Part shown: piece by piece, positions 3,836 to 61,041 of the stretch | Layout of the letters: each line of letters begins with the position of its first letter | Position numbering within the stretch: the first letter of the stretch is position 1 | Sequence record: NC_048170.1 | DNA from: Escherichia phage vB_EcoM_Goslar | DNA length: 64,000 nt | Reading direction: 5' to 3' (one strand) | Position numbers and translations under genes: made by a program | Notes under the pieces: generated by a model | Told to the model about the DNA's origin: nothing | What the model saw: the letters and a program-made list of their open reading frames with translations, nothing else | The model's database searches: none

Positions 3836-4144
3836 ATGAGCAATTTGAACGTTGAGTTTACTTCAACAACGCCTGTCATGAATGGTGTTGGCACTGAAAC
3901 CAAAATCGTATTAGAACCCATTCCAGGGTTACGTGATCTCGGTGATTTTTATCAACTGATGCCGCGTATACGGAAGGCCTTAAACAGTATCGATCTTGAT
4001 TCTAATAAAGATTTCCAACACGATACAGAAAATACCGATCATGTGTTGCTGCCATCGGGGATCGCAAAATTCACCTACACGCAAACATTGAAAGCCTCCG
4101 ATGGTGAAATCCGTCGTTTTATCGTTGAAGTAGAAAGCGCATAA
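3836..4144 (+). CDS. hypothetical protein
   Basis: 102-aa ORF, ATG at 3836; ends at the conserved hairpin 4149-4180. Confidence 0.45.
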   Translation: MSNLNVEFTSTTPVMNGVGTETKIVLEPIPGLRDLGDFYQLMPRIRKALNSIDLDSNKDFQHDTENTDHVLLPSGIAKFTYTQTLKASDGEIRRFIVEVESA

Positions 4145-4843: not shown

Positions 4844-6019
4844 CTACTTCGTTTTCGCCATTATCGGCTGCGATACTGTAATCTCGACCCGATCGACATC
4901 GGTACGTTTAACGATGATAAGGCTGCGTTCATCACCGAATGGTTCTGAGATCTTACAAGCCTCTTTAAGATTTTCGAGAATCTTGCCATGGGGTTCAAAC
5001 ACCGCAAAACCGGAACTAGCGTCGATTCTTATTAGACTTACACGCGTGCCGTTTACGGTAATAACATCTTCCGTCTTGAATTCACAACAGGAGGGTAGAC
5101 GGAACTGGCCGGGAATACCGGCTACGTATGCCTCACCACCGAACATTTCTATTAACGTCACTGGTTTGAATGTTTTCTCTGGGAAAGCATTATTAAGGAT
5201 ATCGTTTCCATTCACAAACCAGATCGTTACTTTATCTTCGGAATACGCTAGTCGGTACGGTTGGGTTGCGGACGCTTGCGCTTTATGTTGGTTAAACAAC
5301 TTTGATTTTGTCGCAATCACAGCACGACCTTGGGCGTCAAAGTACAGAACTTCATACCCAACACATCCGATAAACACGCGACGGTTATTAAGTTCCGGAA
5401 TTCTGACTACTAACGCATTACCGTCTTCCGTCGGTGTAATGCCGCGTAGGACGATCGATTCGTTATTCAATACTGAGTTGTCCACAACGATGCTTCGCAT
5501 TACCGCTGGGGTTACTGTTTTATCTGCGGTAGGTTCAGGTTGCTCAGCAATGCGGTCAAAAGGTTCGATGGATACCATGGGAACGAAGTATTCAACTATA
5601 TGCTTGTTTGCAGCACCAACGTCCATGACGGTGATCTGCAAACGCGTAGCATCCGAATTCAATGCTTGTTTCACACGTTCTGCATTAGGAGTATCACGGT
5701 CAATACGAATCAAGGCTTTTACCACACCGTCGTCTTCCAACCATCCCGTTAAAACGCGACCGACGATATCGTTCACGTCACGAATCGGGAAGCACAGTTC
5801 AGCGCCATCGAGCACCGCTTCGATTTTACTGCTAATGACGGGCACCTTACCATCGTTAAGATGCGCCAGCAGACCGGTTAATGCACCTTCACTAACCGGA
5901 TGTTTTGTCGTCGTACTGACCAACGGTACGATAAAACGATCTTCGCTGTATTTCTCTGCACCACAGATAACCGGGACTTGAGGGCATCGATCAACCAGAC
6001 CCCATTCAACGGTATTCAT
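4844..6019 (-). CDS. hypothetical protein
   Basis: Long ORF 4844..6097 (TTG start); internal ATG at 6017-6019 has the strong SD AAGAAGGA and avoids overlap with the upstream RuvC-like gene; 5' end uncertain. Confidence 0.45.
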   Translation of the reverse strand: MNTVEWGLVDRCPQVPVICGAEKYSEDRFIVPLVSTTTKHPVSEGALTGLLAHLNDGKVPVISSKIEAVLDGAELCFPIRDVNDIVGRVLTGWLEDDGVVKALIRIDRDTPNAERVKQALNSDATRLQITVMDVGAANKHIVEYFVPMVSIEPFDRIAEQPEPTADKTVTPAVMRSIVVDNSVLNNESIVLRGITPTEDGNALVVRIPELNNRRVFIGCVGYEVLYFDAQGRAVIATKSKLFNQHKAQASATQPYRLAYSEDKVTIWFVNGNDILNNAFPEKTFKPVTLIEMFGGEAYVAGIPGQFRLPSCCEFKTEDVITVNGTRVSLIRIDASSGFAVFEPHGKILENLKEACKISEPFGDERSLIIVKRTDVDRVEITVSQPIMAKTK

Positions 6020-7498: not shown

Positions 7499-10018
7499 TT
7501 AAATAATCGTGACGTGTTCGTTATATGTTTCAGGGAGAATGATGTTCGTTTTATCAAGAACCATACACTCTGCTTTACGGAACGACGCATGGTTGATAAC
7601 ATAGTGGCTGATGAACCACACCTGACTTACACGGTGACCATCAACCAAACGACGAACAAAATCCATGGCATTAGATTGGTGTTGTGGATCAAATGTTGAT
7701 GCGAATTCATCTAACATCAACGGATAATCCGTAAACCCTTTGTAATGCATCATCGCGATGATAAACGCGATATTGATAATTTCCTTTTGCCCCTTACTCC
7801 CATAAACAATATCTTTTCGCGGTGTCGGATACTTCTCAGTTAAAAGCGGAAAACGATAGTTCAATCCTTGCGCATCGATAGCACATGGGAGTATCTGAAG
7901 TTGGTATTCCCAAATACTCGCAATGATACCATTCATGTATTCGACGAACGCGTTGATTGGACCCGCGATTGTTTCGGCAATCAGTCCGTTAGATGGACTT
8001 AACTCATCCAGAACCAGTTGTGCGTAACTGAGCTGTTCTTCCACCTCTTTTTGTGTCGTTTCCAACTGAGCCAAAAGCTGCTGGTCGGTTTTAGCTTCCT
8101 GTAGTTGTTGTTCGACATGACTTATTCGGCGAACCGTATCAGACATCGCAGCACGTAACGATTTCGTGTAGAGGTGTTGCAGATACTCTAGCCACAGTTG
8201 CGTTAACGCTTTATCGCTGTTATCAGAACGCACCTGATCTTCCATAATCGTCGTAATGGTTTCCAGCCTACCTTCCGTAGCTGTGATGGCTTGTGTTAAC
8301 CGTTCAACGGTAGTCAGCAACTCTGTCCTGTTCTTATAAAGCAATTCTCGACGTTGCTGTAACGGTTCAACATCAACCGCTTGTACACGTTCGAGCATGC
8401 CTTGAAGATGTTTACGTTCCTGTTCGGCTTGTGTGTAACGCGCAAGTTTCTCAAACGCAAGCAACCAATCGTTAATGATGCCAATGCTGCGGAATCCTAA
8501 ACCGTTTTTACGGCCTTCTTCCAGCAGATTGTCCCACATGGGTTTAATGGCGTAATAATCTTTCGTCCAACGTGTTAACTGACGATGCTGTTCCATCCAG
8601 AGCGTATAACGCTGCACCTTCTCATTAAGTTCGGCTAACGATTTCTCTTGTTCTTCAACCCAAGCACGACCCTTCTGAATACGTTGTTCAATACTCGCTT
8701 TGCTGGTCTTTTCTGTTTCACCAACATGAAAGCGATAATTGCATTTTGGACAGCTGGTCTGGGGTTGATGATTCAGGTGGTCAAGATGCGCTTCCAAATC
8801 GGCTAACGCATGTTTCGCGTTACGCAAACGCATTCTTGCCGCCTCTTCCTCCTTGATGTAAGCTTCAGCATCGTAAACATGATAGGTGTTGTCGGTATCA
8901 ATCCATTCTTGGAGTAATTCTGTTAACGGAGCCTGAACTTGCGTGAGCTGCTGTAAACAAACCGCGGCGTCCAGATTCATTGTTAAAAGCTCACCTGGAT
9001 GATCTTGCTGAAGTTGTTCGTCCAAACGTGCGAGACGGGCTTTAATCTGATCGATATCGCCTTCTCCAGACTGTTTCAACTGGTCAAGGATATTATCGAT
9101 ACCCAACAGCTCGTCAACCTGACTTTCGAGTTTCGCATTCGCATTCGCGAGTTGCTCTCTTAGTTCAGCCAGATTCCGCTGTTCTTGTTGCGATGTTCCT
9201 CCTTGGTAACGAACAACCGCATGAAGAAGCTCGCGATTAAAATGATGAGCACGTTGTGCGGATTCCAGAAGCTGTCGTTGATCAACATCACTATCGAATA
9301 ACGGCAATCCCATCATCGCTTCGAGCGCTGAGCGTTGCTGCTTTAACTCTGCTTCCAATCCCTGGTGGTCGGTTCCGGTGTATTTCGCTTCAATGCGCTG
9401 TGATGTTTCAACCAACTTATTCAGTGTATGCTCATTCACCGCTTTCAGTGAACGTACTTGTTGCTTAACAACCTGAAACAACTCAAGCGCATAATCGACG
9501 TTAACCGGACATATCTGCGTTAATCGTTCGCGACGTTTCATTGGCCCCATTTCAGTGAACTGGTAAGCTGTTTCGTAACCTAACAACAAACGAATGGTAT
9601 CGTCATTAAGTTCGAAATGTTCTTCGATCAGTTTCCACTGGGCCGGTTGTGTGCCACCACCATTCAGGTTCTCGCTATCGTTAACGTAGAACTCATGCTT
9701 AAACCCTTTTTCTAAACGACTGATAAGACGGTATTGCTTATTACGGTGTTCGCAGCGGTACTCGTAATACCCGTCTTTATCAAAATCGGCACGCTCAGGA
9801 ACGGTCGGATACAGCAAAGGCAATAGACTACTCTTACCCGAACCATTACTACCTAAAATGAGTTGTACGGGATTATCTGGCCGGATGACCAGCTCCCGAA
9901 TCATCCCGGTATCAAAACGATTGAATCCACGTAAGTGGAGATAGGTGCATCGCATGCTATGATAATCCTTCTTCGATACCTTCTGAACCCGTGGTTCAGA
10001 ATGCGAAGCTGAAGCCAT
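7499..10018 (-). CDS. SbcC/Rad50-like recombination ATPase
   Basis: Walker A LILGSNGSGKSSLL, long heptad-rich central region, CPKC zinc-hook-like motif in the middle, C-terminal LMLDEFAST Walker B/D-loop. Confidence 0.6.
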   Translation of the reverse strand: MASASHSEPRVQKVSKKDYHSMRCTYLHLRGFNRFDTGMIRELVIRPDNPVQLILGSNGSGKSSLLPLLYPTVPERADFDKDGYYEYRCEHRNKQYRLISRLEKGFKHEFYVNDSENLNGGGTQPAQWKLIEEHFELNDDTIRLLLGYETAYQFTEMGPMKRRERLTQICPVNVDYALELFQVVKQQVRSLKAVNEHTLNKLVETSQRIEAKYTGTDHQGLEAELKQQRSALEAMMGLPLFDSDVDQRQLLESAQRAHHFNRELLHAVVRYQGGTSQQEQRNLAELREQLANANAKLESQVDELLGIDNILDQLKQSGEGDIDQIKARLARLDEQLQQDHPGELLTMNLDAAVCLQQLTQVQAPLTELLQEWIDTDNTYHVYDAEAYIKEEEAARMRLRNAKHALADLEAHLDHLNHQPQTSCPKCNYRFHVGETEKTSKASIEQRIQKGRAWVEEQEKSLAELNEKVQRYTLWMEQHRQLTRWTKDYYAIKPMWDNLLEEGRKNGLGFRSIGIINDWLLAFEKLARYTQAEQERKHLQGMLERVQAVDVEPLQQRRELLYKNRTELLTTVERLTQAITATEGRLETITTIMEDQVRSDNSDKALTQLWLEYLQHLYTKSLRAAMSDTVRRISHVEQQLQEAKTDQQLLAQLETTQKEVEEQLSYAQLVLDELSPSNGLIAETIAGPINAFVEYMNGIIASIWEYQLQILPCAIDAQGLNYRFPLLTEKYPTPRKDIVYGSKGQKEIINIAFIIAMMHYKGFTDYPLMLDEFASTFDPQHQSNAMDFVRRLVDGHRVSQVWFISHYVINHASFRKAECMVLDKTNIILPETYNEHVTII

Positions 10019-13892: not shown

Positions 13893-14192
13893 TTAAGGTT
13901 TAGGTTCCGTTTTGTGTTGTGCGAGTAGTGTGTTGATCTGCTCCCGTTGTTCTTTTAAGCATGCGGGAAGCTGGTCTTCCCGTACCGTTCCGATTTCCAA
14001 CGTGATGTACCAGCGTTGTTCGGAAGCCTGCCATTGAAAACTGCTCTGTAGCCGTAGGATGCTAGGATCACGTACCTTGCTTGCGCTGTAGCGATCGAAC
14101 CAATCCAGGTAAGCGGCTTTCCCTTCCTCGTCGGCAACGTAACGCTGCACGCTGTTCTTCCCTTTGTTCTCGTATCCCGTTGCACGTATCAT
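13893..14192 (-). CDS. hypothetical protein
   Basis: Track ORF 13893..14246; ATG at 14190-14192 gives an ATGA overlap with the upstream stop (pattern recurs in this window). Confidence 0.4.
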   Translation of the reverse strand: MIRATGYENKGKNSVQRYVADEEGKAAYLDWFDRYSASKVRDPSILRLQSSFQWQASEQRWYITLEIGTVREDQLPACLKEQREQINTLLAQHKTEPKP

Positions 14193-14971
14193 GCGAGCGT
14201 TGCTCCTGCATCGTGTTGCGGATAGCGTAGCATGGTAGCATCCCATTGTACGATCCGGCTCCGGCTTACCCGCATCATGATGGATTCATCGTCAAGACCC
14301 GGCTGCGCAACCGGCAACCAACGTTCGTTAAGCACCTTCGCTTCAACGCGTTTCTTGCGGGGATTGTAACGCACCTCGCTAACCCAAGCGAATCCAAGCG
14401 GATGCACAACCCGCGGATAATACATGCGAAGCAATTGATGCATCCGATCTGTTACCTCCAAGCTCGCCTCCGCCATGTAAGGTTTCACCATGGTAAGCTT
14501 TTTGGTGTAATACGTTCCAACGGTATGGTTCGCCCACCCAGGAAGCGCGTGATGGAATCCTACCTGTAATTGTGTATTACCGTTCACCTTCAGCCATCCG
14601 TATTGTCCCGCTGCACGTCCCTCGTCGGTATCGATCCATGTAAGTATATCGATGAATGCATGATCGGTGATCTCGATGCGTTCCACCCGTTCATCCAACG
14701 CACCACGTACCACGAATCCGCTCGTGCTCATCCGTGCAGGATGCTGGCTGCGATGTGCGTACCAATTCTTGTTGCTGGTAAGCAGGTAAGGATACAAGTG
14801 TGCGCCACGCCAAACAACCTTTCCGTTCGTCCCGTCAACGCAGCGTACGCGCATCCCAGCCTGACCGCTGCTGTAGCATGCTACCTTCACGCATTCCGCT
14901 TGCACCGTTGTCGGTAACGCCAGGTATTCATCTTCGGTAAACATCGTATCAAAAATCAATGCTTCTTTCAT
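14189..14971 (-). CDS. hypothetical protein
   Basis: 260-aa ORF, SD AGAGGAA 9 nt upstream; first gene after the AT-rich non-coding island and promoter-like motif A. Confidence 0.5.
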   Translation of the reverse strand: MKEALIFDTMFTEDEYLALPTTVQAECVKVACYSSGQAGMRVRCVDGTNGKVVWRGAHLYPYLLTSNKNWYAHRSQHPARMSTSGFVVRGALDERVERIEITDHAFIDILTWIDTDEGRAAGQYGWLKVNGNTQLQVGFHHALPGWANHTVGTYYTKKLTMVKPYMAEASLEVTDRMHQLLRMYYPRVVHPLGFAWVSEVRYNPRKKRVEAKVLNERWLPVAQPGLDDESIMMRVSRSRIVQWDATMLRYPQHDAGATLA

Positions 14972-15052
14972 TTAAAAAGTTCCTCTGTTTCACGTTAATT
15001 AAACAACGTATTGATTTCTATTTGACAGAATACGAACAGTGTACGTATCTAT

Positions 15053-15076
15053 CATGAAGGTAATGTAGTCGTGAAA
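15053..15076 (-). promoter_or_regulatory. conserved promoter-like motif, copy A
   Basis: Minus-sense TTCACGACTACATTACCTTCATGA; one of four near-identical copies, about 80 nt upstream of the 14971 start. Confidence 0.45.
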
Positions 15077-15638
15077 GGATTTGTGTTACAGAAAGGGTTT
15101 TGTTTGTTTTAAGAAGGGATGGATTTAGAAGAGGTGTTTCAAGGAAGGTAAACGAGGATAGGTATTTTGATTTAAGTAAGCAAGTAAGATGTTATCTGTA
15201 TTTGTTAAAAGTGTATTGTCTATGTTATCTTGTTTATCTTAGGTTATGTCTTATTGTTCAATCGTTTTATCTTGGTATGTTTACGTTGTTTTTATTTATC
15301 TTAAATTAATTTAAAAGTAGATCAATAAGCTTATCTTCAAAACAATGGATAACATGTGTTTACTACCTTAACGGTAACACATGTCATCTGTGCATTACAC
15401 TACGTTACATGCTAGTTAAATCGGATAACTCAAAAAACCATTTGTGATACTCTTCTTCACGTTGTTCATCAGAGTATCTCGTCTATACTCATTGCATTCG
15501 TATACGACATAACCGTTATACGCTAACGCTACGCTTATAGCTTGATAACTCTAAGGATAAAAACATAAACTCGCTTCGCTCGTTTAGTTTTTCTTTTTCT
15601 TAGAGTTATCCTGTTGCTCGTCTCTAAAGGACTTCGCT

Positions 15639-15666
15639 CCTCCCCCGTCCCCCGAAGGGGCCGAGG
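15639..15666 (-). terminator. degenerate member of the stem-loop family (CCCC-CGAA-GGGG core)
   Basis: cctcccccgtcccccgaaggggccgagg inside the non-coding island. Confidence 0.3.
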
Positions 15667-15777
15667 TCGTGGAAATTTTACTTTCCAAATACATTTACAA
15701 CATCTGTAAACTTTTACTCCAGGTACTTAATCTTATCGTTAGAAATTATAAAAGAGAAGAATAAACACAAACATAAA

Positions 15778-15810
15778 CCTTCCTCCAACCCAACAGGGAA
15801 GGAGGAAGGG
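15778..15810 (-). terminator. conserved intergenic stem-loop terminator
   Basis: ccttcctcc-aa-ccc-aaca-ggg-aa-ggaggaagg directly after the stop of 15826..16719; minus-sense hairpin followed by UUUAUGUUUG. Confidence 0.6.
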
Positions 15811-15825
15811 AGAGCTTGATTTTAA

Positions 15826-16719
15826 TTAATCAGCAGTGTTATAACCGAATACTGCTTTACCGTAGGTGTGGGTACCGTTAGCTAATGACAGCACCAACAC
15901 ATGGTTGTACGTAGCGTTAACACCATTGTCGGTAGAACTGGTGGTAGCACCGTTATAGACAAAGGTAGCTGTTTGCAGATTGGCTTTCAGCTCGGTGATG
16001 ATCTCATCACTTACACCGGTCTGCTCTTTGATCAGCGTGGTCAGGTTACCTGCCAGGCTTTCATTGATCTTGGTTTCGTTATTGGTAATCCCCTGTAAAC
16101 CTGCAGTGTAGGTGCTGAAGTCTAACGGATAGGTTAACAGACGTGCTGACGTTTTGGTACCATCGCCTTCATCAACGTAGGTTAAGTTACCCAGGTTGGT
16201 AACCTTGATGATGTTAGCCAGATCCAGCGTAGTGTTATAAACTTTAACTTGAACAGAGCCATACCACGCCAACGAATCTTCTTTGGCTTCCAGGGTGATC
16301 GTCTGGATACCATGCTCGTTGAAGGTAACCGGATTAGATAACGTATCGGCTTTGATGTCTTTATCTTTATCCAGGAACTTCTCACCGGTCGGCGTGATCA
16401 TACCGTAGCGTTGAGCTACAAGGTCAACCACATCACCGATGGTGGTGTCAGCAGTAACGTTAACACGTACAGCGATTTTCTGGAACCACTTAGCCAGATC
16501 CAGACGATGGTAGGTAACATCGCGGTTATTGAAGTAAGGGGTACCTTCACCAGGGCTAAGCGTTAAAGTTGCGTCTGGAGCAGAATCACTTTTGGATTTA
16601 AGGACGTATTTAAGGTCGGTATATTTGAAGTTGGCACCAGTGTCAGTGTTGAGTTTGTTAATCTCATCAACGATAAGTTGCCAAGGTGTTTTTAAAGTAA
16701 GCGATACTTGAGTTGCCAT
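15826..16719 (-). CDS. virion-type protein, paralog family A (YxRxD and LAWxGSV motifs)
   Basis: Contains TYHRLDLAKWF and LAWYGSVQVKV shared with four other ORFs; optimal-codon-rich; SD GAGGT. Confidence 0.55.
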   Translation of the reverse strand: MATQVSLTLKTPWQLIVDEINKLNTDTGANFKYTDLKYVLKSKSDSAPDATLTLSPGEGTPYFNNRDVTYHRLDLAKWFQKIAVRVNVTADTTIGDVVDLVAQRYGMITPTGEKFLDKDKDIKADTLSNPVTFNEHGIQTITLEAKEDSLAWYGSVQVKVYNTTLDLANIIKVTNLGNLTYVDEGDGTKTSARLLTYPLDFSTYTAGLQGITNNETKINESLAGNLTTLIKEQTGVSDEIITELKANLQTATFVYNGATTSSTDNGVNATYNHVLVLSLANGTHTYGKAVFGYNTAD

Positions 16720-43100: not shown

Positions 43101-43250
43101 CGTCAACCTCCATCAGATTGAAAACTATCACGCATAATACATTTCCCTTTTTCTTGTTCTTATCAAGCCGACAGCCGACGGTTTCAGCATCGTTCCTAGC
43201 GCGAGAACGACCTTACGTGTTGTCTATGCCTTATTCATCGCAGGCGTCTG

Positions 43251-43274
43251 TCACCTAGGTAATGTAAGCGTCAA
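43251..43274 (-). promoter_or_regulatory. conserved promoter-like motif, copy C
   Basis: Minus-sense TTGACGCTTACATTACCTAGGTGA, about 35 nt downstream (minus sense) of hairpin 43310-43339 and ~150 nt upstream of the 43100 start. Confidence 0.45.
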
Positions 43275-43309
43275 ATTTTTTCTATTCGCAACGATAAACG
43301 GCATAGAAA

Positions 43310-43339
43310 CCTCCCCCAACCCTTACGGGCTGAGGGAGG
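43310..43339 (-). terminator. conserved intergenic stem-loop terminator (variant)
   Basis: cctccc-ccaa-ccc-ttac-ggg-ctga-gggagg; minus-sense followed by UUUCUAUGCCG; downstream of the candidate capsid gene. Confidence 0.5.
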
Positions 43340-43438
43340 CTGACTTATGTATCACGGTGCCGGATGAATGTCCGGTGCAATGAAACCATCTGCAACGTTG
43401 TCATCAAGAATATCATCCAACGAAGCAGCTACGGTAGT

Positions 43439-49716: not shown

Positions 49717-49740
49717 TCATCTAGGTAATGTAGTCGCGAA
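49717..49740 (-). promoter_or_regulatory. conserved promoter-like motif, copy B
   Basis: Minus-sense TTCGCGACTACATTACCTAGATGA, about 35 nt downstream (minus sense) of hairpin 49776-49807. Confidence 0.45.
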
Positions 49741-61008: not shown

Positions 61009-61041
61009 CCTTCCTCCAACCCGTAAGGGAAGGAGGAAGGG
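61009..61041 (-). terminator. conserved intergenic stem-loop terminator
   Basis: ccttcctcc-aa-ccc-gtaa-ggg-aa-ggaggaagg; minus-sense followed by UUUUAUGGCG. Confidence 0.6.

Follow-up and report, generated by a model that had tools for sequence, protein, structure and literature searches.

The region analyzed here is an 854-nt gap (14972-15825) between the start of gene gp21 and the stop codon of gene gp22 of Escherichia phage vB_EcoM_Goslar, and it lies in a stretch of 64,000 nucleotides of sequence record NC_048170.1 (hereafter, the window, to which all coordinates refer). The protein encoded at 15826..16719 on the minus strand is 100% identical to NCBI Goslar_00022, which identifies the source of the window. 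Goslar itself is a nucleus-forming jumbo phage with a circularly permuted genome of 237 kb (PMC6563267). The gene on one side of the gap, gp22 (Goslar_00022; 15826..16719, minus strand), is an abundantly expressed late gene for a virion protein that matches Pfam DUF7941 and a PHROG of virion structural proteins, and that is present at approximately 580 copies per virion (bioRxiv 10.64898/2026.04.21.720040), while on the other side lies gp21 (14189..14971, minus strand), a fast-evolving gene of 260 amino acids with no family match. Both genes and nearly all of their neighbours are on the minus strand; the intergenic island, which starts at the gp22 stop codon, is 3' of gp22 and 5' of gp21, and hence we read it on the minus strand throughout. 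An earlier annotation of this DNA (the original prediction) had singled out the island as the largest gap of the window, rich in A and T, and typical of a replication origin or of a regulatory or non-coding RNA (ncRNA) locus. The gap is indeed the largest, the second-largest genuine gap being 332 nt (43107-43438), and its GC content is 36.5%, as against 42-52% elsewhere. As to its nature, the regulatory or ncRNA option is supported, because the island holds a terminator, an early promoter and an ultra-conserved core in which base pairing is preserved on one strand, while a DnaA/iteron replication origin is not what it looks like.

In order to see which parts of the island matter, we took the homologous region from 17 further Goslar-like genomes (from IMG/VR, ENA, Logan and NCBI assemblies; individual relatives are given below as L002, L016 and so on), the gp22 proteins of which are 76-93% identical to that of Goslar, making 18 genomes together with Goslar. 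IMG/VR searches contributed only two of these relatives, and an exact-pattern scan of GTDB genomes none. The gap is kept in all 17 relatives, with a width of 793-922 nt in the nine whose flanking genes were called or scanned; in L016 it is clearly shorter, with only 115 nt from the T-run that ends the core to the early promoter. The alignments split the island into five modules which, in minus-strand order, are the terminator of gp22, a T-rich spacer, the core, a G-poor variable zone, and a block composed of a pyrimidine-rich stretch, the early promoter and the gp21 leader. In other words, the island is a modular intergenic control region between the late gene gp22 and the early operon that runs from gp21 onwards, both on the minus strand, and of its modules only the core, approximately 305 nt in length, is under strong selection.

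This core (15432..15736, minus strand), a candidate ncRNA, is found in 18 of the 18 Goslar-like genomes and, as judged by nhmmer, in a single copy in the window. Pairwise identity of the core averages 95.9% over 13 genomes, and 88% of the alignment columns are invariant. In the same comparison, the corresponding values are 82.8% and 52% for the last 600 nt of gp22, 67.4% and 29% for the first 600 nt of gp21 DNA, and 53% and 6% for the rest of the island. The non-coding core is, therefore, more conserved than its neighbours, which is one of the generic marks of a structured ncRNA. What is more, when approximately 9 kb are compared across three genomes, the core is the sole place without a variable column over two consecutive 100-nt bins, and no column at all varies from 15722 to 15522; other intergenic regions in these 9 kb have 16-21 variable columns per 100 nt. 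The boundaries are sharp on both sides. Namely, conservation begins at ATAAGATTA and ends exactly after ACAAATGG and the six T residues that follow it, so that the 3' boundary coincides with a T-run.

The core is predicted to fold into approximately nine hairpins with the T-run at the end, and the fold is a stable one: the minimum free energy (MFE) of the RNA is -88.7 kcal/mol with a z-score of -5.2 (range of -5.2 to -5.3 against shuffled sequences), and folding with DNA parameters gives z = -5.1. Both measures of strand preference point to the minus strand, with a consensus fold of -79.6 kcal/mol as compared to -62.1 on the plus strand, and a mean MFE of -86.8 as compared to -72.5. In the consensus, four hairpins enclosed in a weak closing helix are followed by a 65-nt imperfect hairpin, the P7/P8 region, an 8-bp hairpin and the U-run. 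In 14 distinct sequences, with 1190 pair cells altogether, pairing is canonical in 99.7% of the cells, as against 37-52% when the partners are slid. Double-sided changes account for 13 cells in four pairs, and the resulting covariation score is reached by none of 500 shuffles. Where only one side of a stem pair changes and pairing is retained, the result is G·U, which on the plus strand would be an A·C mismatch, and five G·U pairs in the core are invariant. Compensatory and wobble changes thus maintain pairing on the minus strand alone, a second generic mark of a structured ncRNA, for which the support is thin.

Looking at the individual elements, hairpin P4 (15643..15666, minus strand), which the original prediction had correctly listed as a GC hairpin, has a stem capped by a cUUCGg tetraloop. 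In L016 it is flipped from GGCCCCTTCGGGGGAC to GTCCCCCGAAGGGGAC, a change that preserves the stem and repairs an internal G/A mismatch. The long imperfect hairpin P6 (15545..15609, minus strand) has at its base the inverted 12-mer of the original prediction, which is exact (15544-15555 and 15599-15610) and extends into a 20-nt inverted repeat with 85% complementarity; its 24 pairs are invariant in the 14 sequences, and its tip reads GA-GC-GAA-GC-GA (GCGAAGC at 15573-15579). The P7/P8 region (15481..15538, minus strand) consists of mini-hairpins with G-N-A triloops and admits two alternative pairings. Here, the tip of P8 covaries (AU-GCA-AU, AC-GCA-GU, GC-GCA-GU and GC-GAA-GC), and two of the G-N-A loops vary at N only, being GCA, GAA or GUA. 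Finally, hairpin P9 (15446..15478, minus strand), with an 8-bp stem and a 17-nt loop, GAUGAACAACGUGAAGA, is followed by ACAAAUGG and U6 (15432-15445) and does not vary in any of the 18 genomes. The MFE fold also predicts that the T-rich spacer and the tail of P9 pair over a long range into a 5'/3' closing helix; this helix was rejected, as the spacer is not conserved.

The core belongs to no known family that we could find. Over the whole window, Rfam 15 gives no match at gathering thresholds, and with permissive settings (E up to 10) the sole match is a chance snoRNA hit of 17 bits; ARAGORN finds no tRNA or tmRNA. BLAST searches of the island and core against deposited phages, E. coli genomes and plasmids returned either nothing or only chance A-rich matches. 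In this respect, it should be noted that Goslar itself has no nucleotide match in the collection of deposited phages that was searched (an INPHARED copy), and therefore the lack of a phage match does not mean that such a phage has not been sequenced. Among more distant phages, nhmmer found no match to the core in Serratia phage PCH45, where 40 kb surrounding the DUF7941 gene were searched, nor, in a search across all loci, in L006, a relative at 51% identity. A type III toxin-antitoxin antitoxin RNA, or pseudo-ToxI, was considered and rejected: Tandem Repeats Finder detects no tandem repeats of approximately 34-36 nt, and the neighbouring genes have no PADLOC match. To our knowledge, no non-coding RNAs or replication origins are known for Goslar, and literature searches turned up no account of the locus in the searchable papers.

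What, then, is the core? We consider the chances to be about even that it is the gene of an undescribed structured ncRNA of approximately 300 nt, encoded on the minus strand after the gp22 terminator. Such an RNA would be some 300-340 nt long and would be made by the late (non-virion) RNA polymerase of the phage, which would either re-initiate at the TATG behind the gp22 terminator hairpin or read through this terminator. At the level of motifs, the context agrees with this, as a terminator and a late TATG lie directly upstream of the core and a T-run lies downstream. Because loops and linkers are as invariant as stems, the RNA would most likely act by contacting, in a specific manner, a protein or nucleic acid of phage or host origin, and not as a simple terminator. 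Short intergenic and 5'-untranslated region (UTR) RNAs are, moreover, made by phiKZ-like phages (PMC10914365; PMC11512511). In particular, the ncRNAs of phiKZ and 201phi2-1, detected experimentally by ONT-cappable-seq in the same virus family (PMC10914365, PMC11512511), are delimited by phage transcription start sites and hairpin terminators and are conserved in position among related jumbo phages. They are 70-250 nt long, whereas the Goslar core, with its approximately 305 nt and nine or so hairpins, is predicted from sequence, has no similarity to anything in the phage database searched, and follows the DUF7941 gene instead of lying upstream of a gp182-type tail gene.

That said, several points weigh against an ncRNA gene. 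The covariation rests on few events, since the sequences are 90-100% identical, and the majority of pairs show no variation at all. A G·G opposition in L024, a recombinant, weakens the closing helix P1, and two models compete for the P7/P8 region, either of which leaves a pair broken in one genome or another. Between the last stem and the T-run there are 8 nt, unlike in a canonical intrinsic terminator. Several of the core hairpins are GC-GNA-GC mini-hairpins, and these are best known for being exceptionally stable as single-stranded DNA. The element is restricted to a single genus, with both L006 and PCH45 lacking it. In L010, the hairpin is followed by TATAC instead of TATG, a type of change that would inactivate the late promoter of phiKZ (PMC7598289). 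Finally, it is from the sequence that we infer transcription, strand, ends and mode of action of the putative RNA.

Would the evidence be accommodated equally well if the core had no function in trans? It could, for example, be a long structured 3' UTR or an insulator that stabilizes the very abundant gp22 mRNA or stops late read-through into the early operon on the same strand. In favour of this, the core comes straight after the terminator of gp22, a late gene with high expression, and ahead of an early promoter on the same strand, it consists of nine or so hairpins ending in a T-run, and other modular hairpins do come and go in the island. However, the true Goslar terminators, i.e. the hairpins of the family to which the gp22 terminator belongs, drift and covary freely, nothing comparable is appended to any other terminator in the window, and simple terminators or stabilizers have no need for loops and linkers that are invariant and conserved above coding DNA. 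On balance, we regard a 3' UTR or insulator as unlikely, if worth keeping in mind. Far less can be said for a small protein encoded by the core, for instance by the open reading frame (ORF) of 36 amino acids at 15584..15694 on the minus strand, and we find this highly improbable. Although this ORF remains uninterrupted throughout the relatives, it lacks a Shine-Dalgarno sequence, its 36 codons contain no synonymous variation whatsoever in 18 genomes, the few changes are non-synonymous and lie inside a hairpin, and the conservation runs approximately 200 nt past the ORF on both sides. A further alternative moves the functional heart of the island from the core to the TTATCT words (AGATAA on the minus strand) of the variable zone, as an array bound on duplex DNA by a terminase (pac-like), by a partition or nucleoid protein, or by a transcription factor of the early promoter. 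Six words where 0.27 are expected, their single orientation in every genome, and the presence of arrays in 17 of 18 genomes despite turnover all speak for this possibility. Yet, the shared word is only 6-7 nt long and shows no helical phasing (spacing of 4-61 nt), its copy number ranges from 0 to 7, L016 having none, Tandem Repeats Finder identifies no repeat unit, no array of this kind accompanies the three other early promoters in the window, and the genome is circularly permuted with no defined end reported (PMC6563267). For these reasons, we judge a binding array at the heart of the island to be quite improbable.

The remaining alternatives concern replication. The core could be a cis-acting replication element, namely either an R-loop origin of the T4 or ColE1 kind, in which the structured transcript would persist on the AT-rich DNA downstream and prime DNA synthesis, or a hairpin-rich signal on the minus strand for initiation on single strands. 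Indeed, an AT-rich zone (36.5% GC) lies directly downstream of the core in the direction of transcription, so that Goslar shares with T4 and ColE1 a structured candidate transcript upstream of AT-rich DNA. The several GC-GNA-GC mini-hairpins and the long inverted repeat, together with a structure that is preserved on one strand only and that also folds well with DNA parameters, likewise speak for a replication element. In this connection, the complementary-strand origins of phiX174 and G4 and the promoters of the N4 virion RNA polymerase use DNA mini-hairpins with GNA triloops, within 20-150 nt, which are read by unrelated enzymes. We take the core to resemble these elements in being strand-specific and rich in hairpins, with several C-GNA-G loops including GCGAAGC; it is unlike them in its cUUCGg loop and many G·U pairs, which are more typical of RNA. 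According to one report, the Goslar polymerase has an essential RNase H-clamp subunit that is needed for replication, with R-loops implicated (PMC13648698), and the review that was searched mentions no chimallivirus origin. On the other hand, neither GC skew nor gene orientation switches at the island, L016 does without the AT-rich array and has only 115 nt from the T-run to the early promoter, five G·U pairs that never vary and substitutions of the wobble type only are more in keeping with RNA than with DNA, and the core is missing from more distant relatives, which must also replicate. All in all, a cis-acting replication element strikes us as rather unlikely.

The original prediction had pointed to iterons and DnaA-box-like repeats; an origin of the plasmid or lambda type, in which such elements lie next to the gene of an initiator, is another matter, and we give it hardly any credence. 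Like plasmid oriV and lambda ori, the Goslar island is an AT-rich non-coding stretch with repeated words and inverted repeats. The TTATCC core of the inverted 12-mer had been likened to a DnaA box, and yet neither 12-mer contains a match to TTATNCACA with at most one mismatch; such matches number 57 in the window, where 60 are expected by chance, with one in the island, and the 12-mers are accounted for as the base of a conserved hairpin of the core. Likewise, the repeats do not behave as iterons: the words, 6-7 nt in length, are irregularly spaced, and there are neither direct repeats of 17-22 bp with helical spacing nor a tandem array detectable with Tandem Repeats Finder (none at a score of at least 30). 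The words are dispensable, being absent from L016, and four relatives are without the palindrome. As to an initiator next door, gp21 shows no similarity to any initiator or DNA-binding family in profile searches, with no match in Pfam, PHROGs, NCBIfam, PADLOC or the PDB, and its AlphaFold2 model is poor (mean predicted local distance difference test score, pLDDT, of 56.6) and unreliable for a fold search. The cumulative GC skew, proposed earlier as a check, has its minimum at 23.4 kb and is flat over 14.8-18.4 kb, with no inflection at the island, skew being a weak test in the case of a phage. Lastly, nucleus-forming phages exclude most host proteins from their DNA.

Returning to the core as an ncRNA gene, one can go a step further and ask whether it is the founding member of a new family of large (approximately 300 nt), structured RNAs that is specific to Goslar-like nucleus-forming phages, with a sequence-specific partner. 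We put this forward tentatively, at somewhat less than an even chance; such a partner would explain the invariance even of the loops. If this is true, the RNA might prime or license replication via an R-loop processed by the phage RNase H-clamp, might take part in RNA traffic between nucleus and cytoplasm, or might act as a decoy against RNA-sensing host defences. Goslar is among the main laboratory models for nucleus-forming jumbo phages, and its DNA is shielded from host defences, so that in the infection it is RNA that forms the exposed layer. An element of approximately 300 nt, which is more conserved than the coding DNA around it and is placed between a late and an early transcription unit, is a concrete and inexpensive target. 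In addition, the analysis provides a usable map of terminator, late-TATG and early-promoter motifs for Goslar.

The first of these motifs, the putative gp22 terminator (15772..15809, minus strand), is of the phiKZ type. It consists of a family hairpin, CCTTCCTCC..GGAGGAAGG (15778-15809), the presence of which on this flank had been noted before, followed by TTTATG. That is, a GC-rich hairpin of the CCYCC...GGRGG type is followed by TTAT(G), in agreement with the published terminator motif of phiKZ, ...GGGRRGGBYTTATKYYGT (PMC10914365), and the late promoter of phiKZ is T-3ATG+1 (PMC7598289). In relatives, the hairpin undergoes compensatory changes, from CCTTCC/GGAAGG to CCTCC/GGAGG. The design of a hairpin plus TATG recurs at least 15 times in the window and can often be read on both strands, although it explains only the right-hand 40 nt of the island and not the core. 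Examples in which a family hairpin is followed by TATG within 1-5 nt are found at 4143/4184, 27744/27780, 36840/36883, 43305/43346, 48141, 49773, 55078/55105, 61005/61052 and 63711/63749, and these sites are often two-stranded (CATA-hairpin-TATG). The terminator motif and the late-promoter word thus coincide, which suggests, at the level of sequence motifs, either coupled termination and re-initiation or bidirectional terminators. An element GGTT(T)ATCTTTTGA had also been reported after the hairpins near 61009 and 63715 and linked to the TTATCT words of the island; it is present at both places, although on the minus (coding) strand, i.e. in the orientation opposite to that of TTATCT in the island. 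As a general motif, TTATCTTTTGA was rejected, not being enriched overall; its few exact copies sit 3' of terminators on the coding strand, and it is therefore probably part of a terminator or 5'-UTR design. Between the terminator and the core lies the T-rich spacer (15737..15771, minus strand; approximately 35 nt), with indels and substitutions in relatives.

At the other end of the island, TTCACGACTACATTAC (15060..15075, minus strand) corresponds to a promoter-like motif that the original prediction had rightly placed on this flank, and can be assigned to the early promoters of the virion RNA polymerase type. In particular, it is a TTTCA-N5-ATATTAC-like motif upstream of a gene expected to be early, it agrees with the promoter consensus published for N1M2, OBP, 201phi2-1, EL and phiKZ (PMC7058600, Table 2), and this consensus is regarded as the early promoter, used by the virion RNA polymerase (PMC7598289). 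Over its slightly longer extent in Goslar, TTTCACGACTACATTACC at 15060-15077 matches the phiKZ-like consensus TTTCARRYAKATATTAY... (PMC7058600, PMC7598289), with the difference that the Goslar copy is known by its motif. The motif is conserved in all relatives and has seven matches in the window where 1.9 are expected; good copies, each of them on the minus strand and ahead of a gene, are located at 2560, 15060 and 49725. We take 15060-15075 to be the probable early promoter driving gp21. Further TTTCACGRCTAYATTACYTWNRTGA copies upstream of minus-strand genes are seen at 2560-2575, 49725-49740 and approximately 43259-43274 (all on the minus strand), and such copies could serve to define the early operons of Goslar. 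A scan of the sequence for sigma-70 promoters gave a result below chance. Upstream of the early promoter is a pyrimidine-rich block (15076..15165, minus strand) that has 3% G on the minus strand and is partly conserved.

The G-poor variable zone that separates the core from this block is, as a whole, 40% A and 10% G on the minus strand. Within it, the AT-rich array of TTATCT words on the plus strand (15192..15337; 49% A and 9% G on the minus strand) bears out the earlier count of about six: there are exactly six words, all on the plus strand, between 15192 and 15336 (starting at 15192, 15225, 15234, 15267, 15296 and 15331), with spacings noted as 35, 29, 33, 9 and 33. In 5000 dinucleotide-preserving shuffles of 15150-15400, the mean is 0.27 and the maximum 3. 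In the relatives, AGATAA or AGATAG words occur always in one orientation, 0-7 times per genome and 4-61 nt apart, and L016 lacks the whole repeat zone. The words are clearly non-random, and therefore some function or mutational process maintains them, though not an essential one. The near-palindrome described previously is there as well (15348..15388, with arms of 13 nt at 15348-15360 and 15376-15388 that are 92% complementary) and is followed by TTGTTTTG on the minus strand; in most relatives its stem is kept and its loop varies, and it is absent in L002, L016, L017 and L018. Other small hairpins are gained or lost among relatives within the island. All of this identifies the zone of words and palindrome as an accessory, fast-changing spacer between the core and the gp21 early promoter. 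The ORF at 15100..15309, correctly described as the only one in the island (at a length of at least 40 amino acids), falls in a part with indels among relatives. A separate observation concerns the 3' end of the core: in L007, L009, L013, L014, L017 and L019, an extra perfect hairpin, AACGTTTTGT-GAAGA-CAAAACGTT, directly follows its T-run, and this hairpin is absent in Goslar.

In the gp21 5' leader (14972..15059, minus strand), a hairpin, ACGTT..AACGT, is conserved and a palindrome is variable; the leader also has the Shine-Dalgarno sequence, GAGGAA, at 14980-14985. The gene itself is only 41-90% identical within a clade whose gp22 proteins are 74-100% identical (homologues P0072-P0092), and would be a fast-evolving early gene outside all known families. 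In L002 (approximately 7560-7640), L012 and L015, between zero and two extra units composed of TTACCT, a palindrome of approximately 20 nt and GCGACGCGTAAGNG are found between the early promoter and the gp21 start; each unit has its own distinct palindrome, and the arrangement resembles a duplication of the initially transcribed region. The leader (14985-15012) and the loop of P9 (15446-15478), both on the minus strand, share AACGTGAA, which is AACAACGTGAA in the L007 clade, and the Goslar leader also carries the complement ACGTTGTT, so that a shared binding site or RNA-RNA pairing is possible. As for direct pairing between the P9 loop (AACAACGU) and the leader (ACGUUGUU), it is found only in part of the clade.

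Two minor observations concern neighbouring sequence. In L006, the gp22 homologue is followed by a different and shorter gap of 374 nt, which contains, at approximately 5016-5240, an uncalled ORF for a hydrophobic, membrane-like product of approximately 74 amino acids; its only counterpart in Goslar is an 11-codon, remnant-like ORF, MFVFILLFYNF, at 15740-15775 on the minus strand. Elsewhere in the window, a run of 17 A is seen on the plus strand at approximately 45-61, just past a family hairpin.

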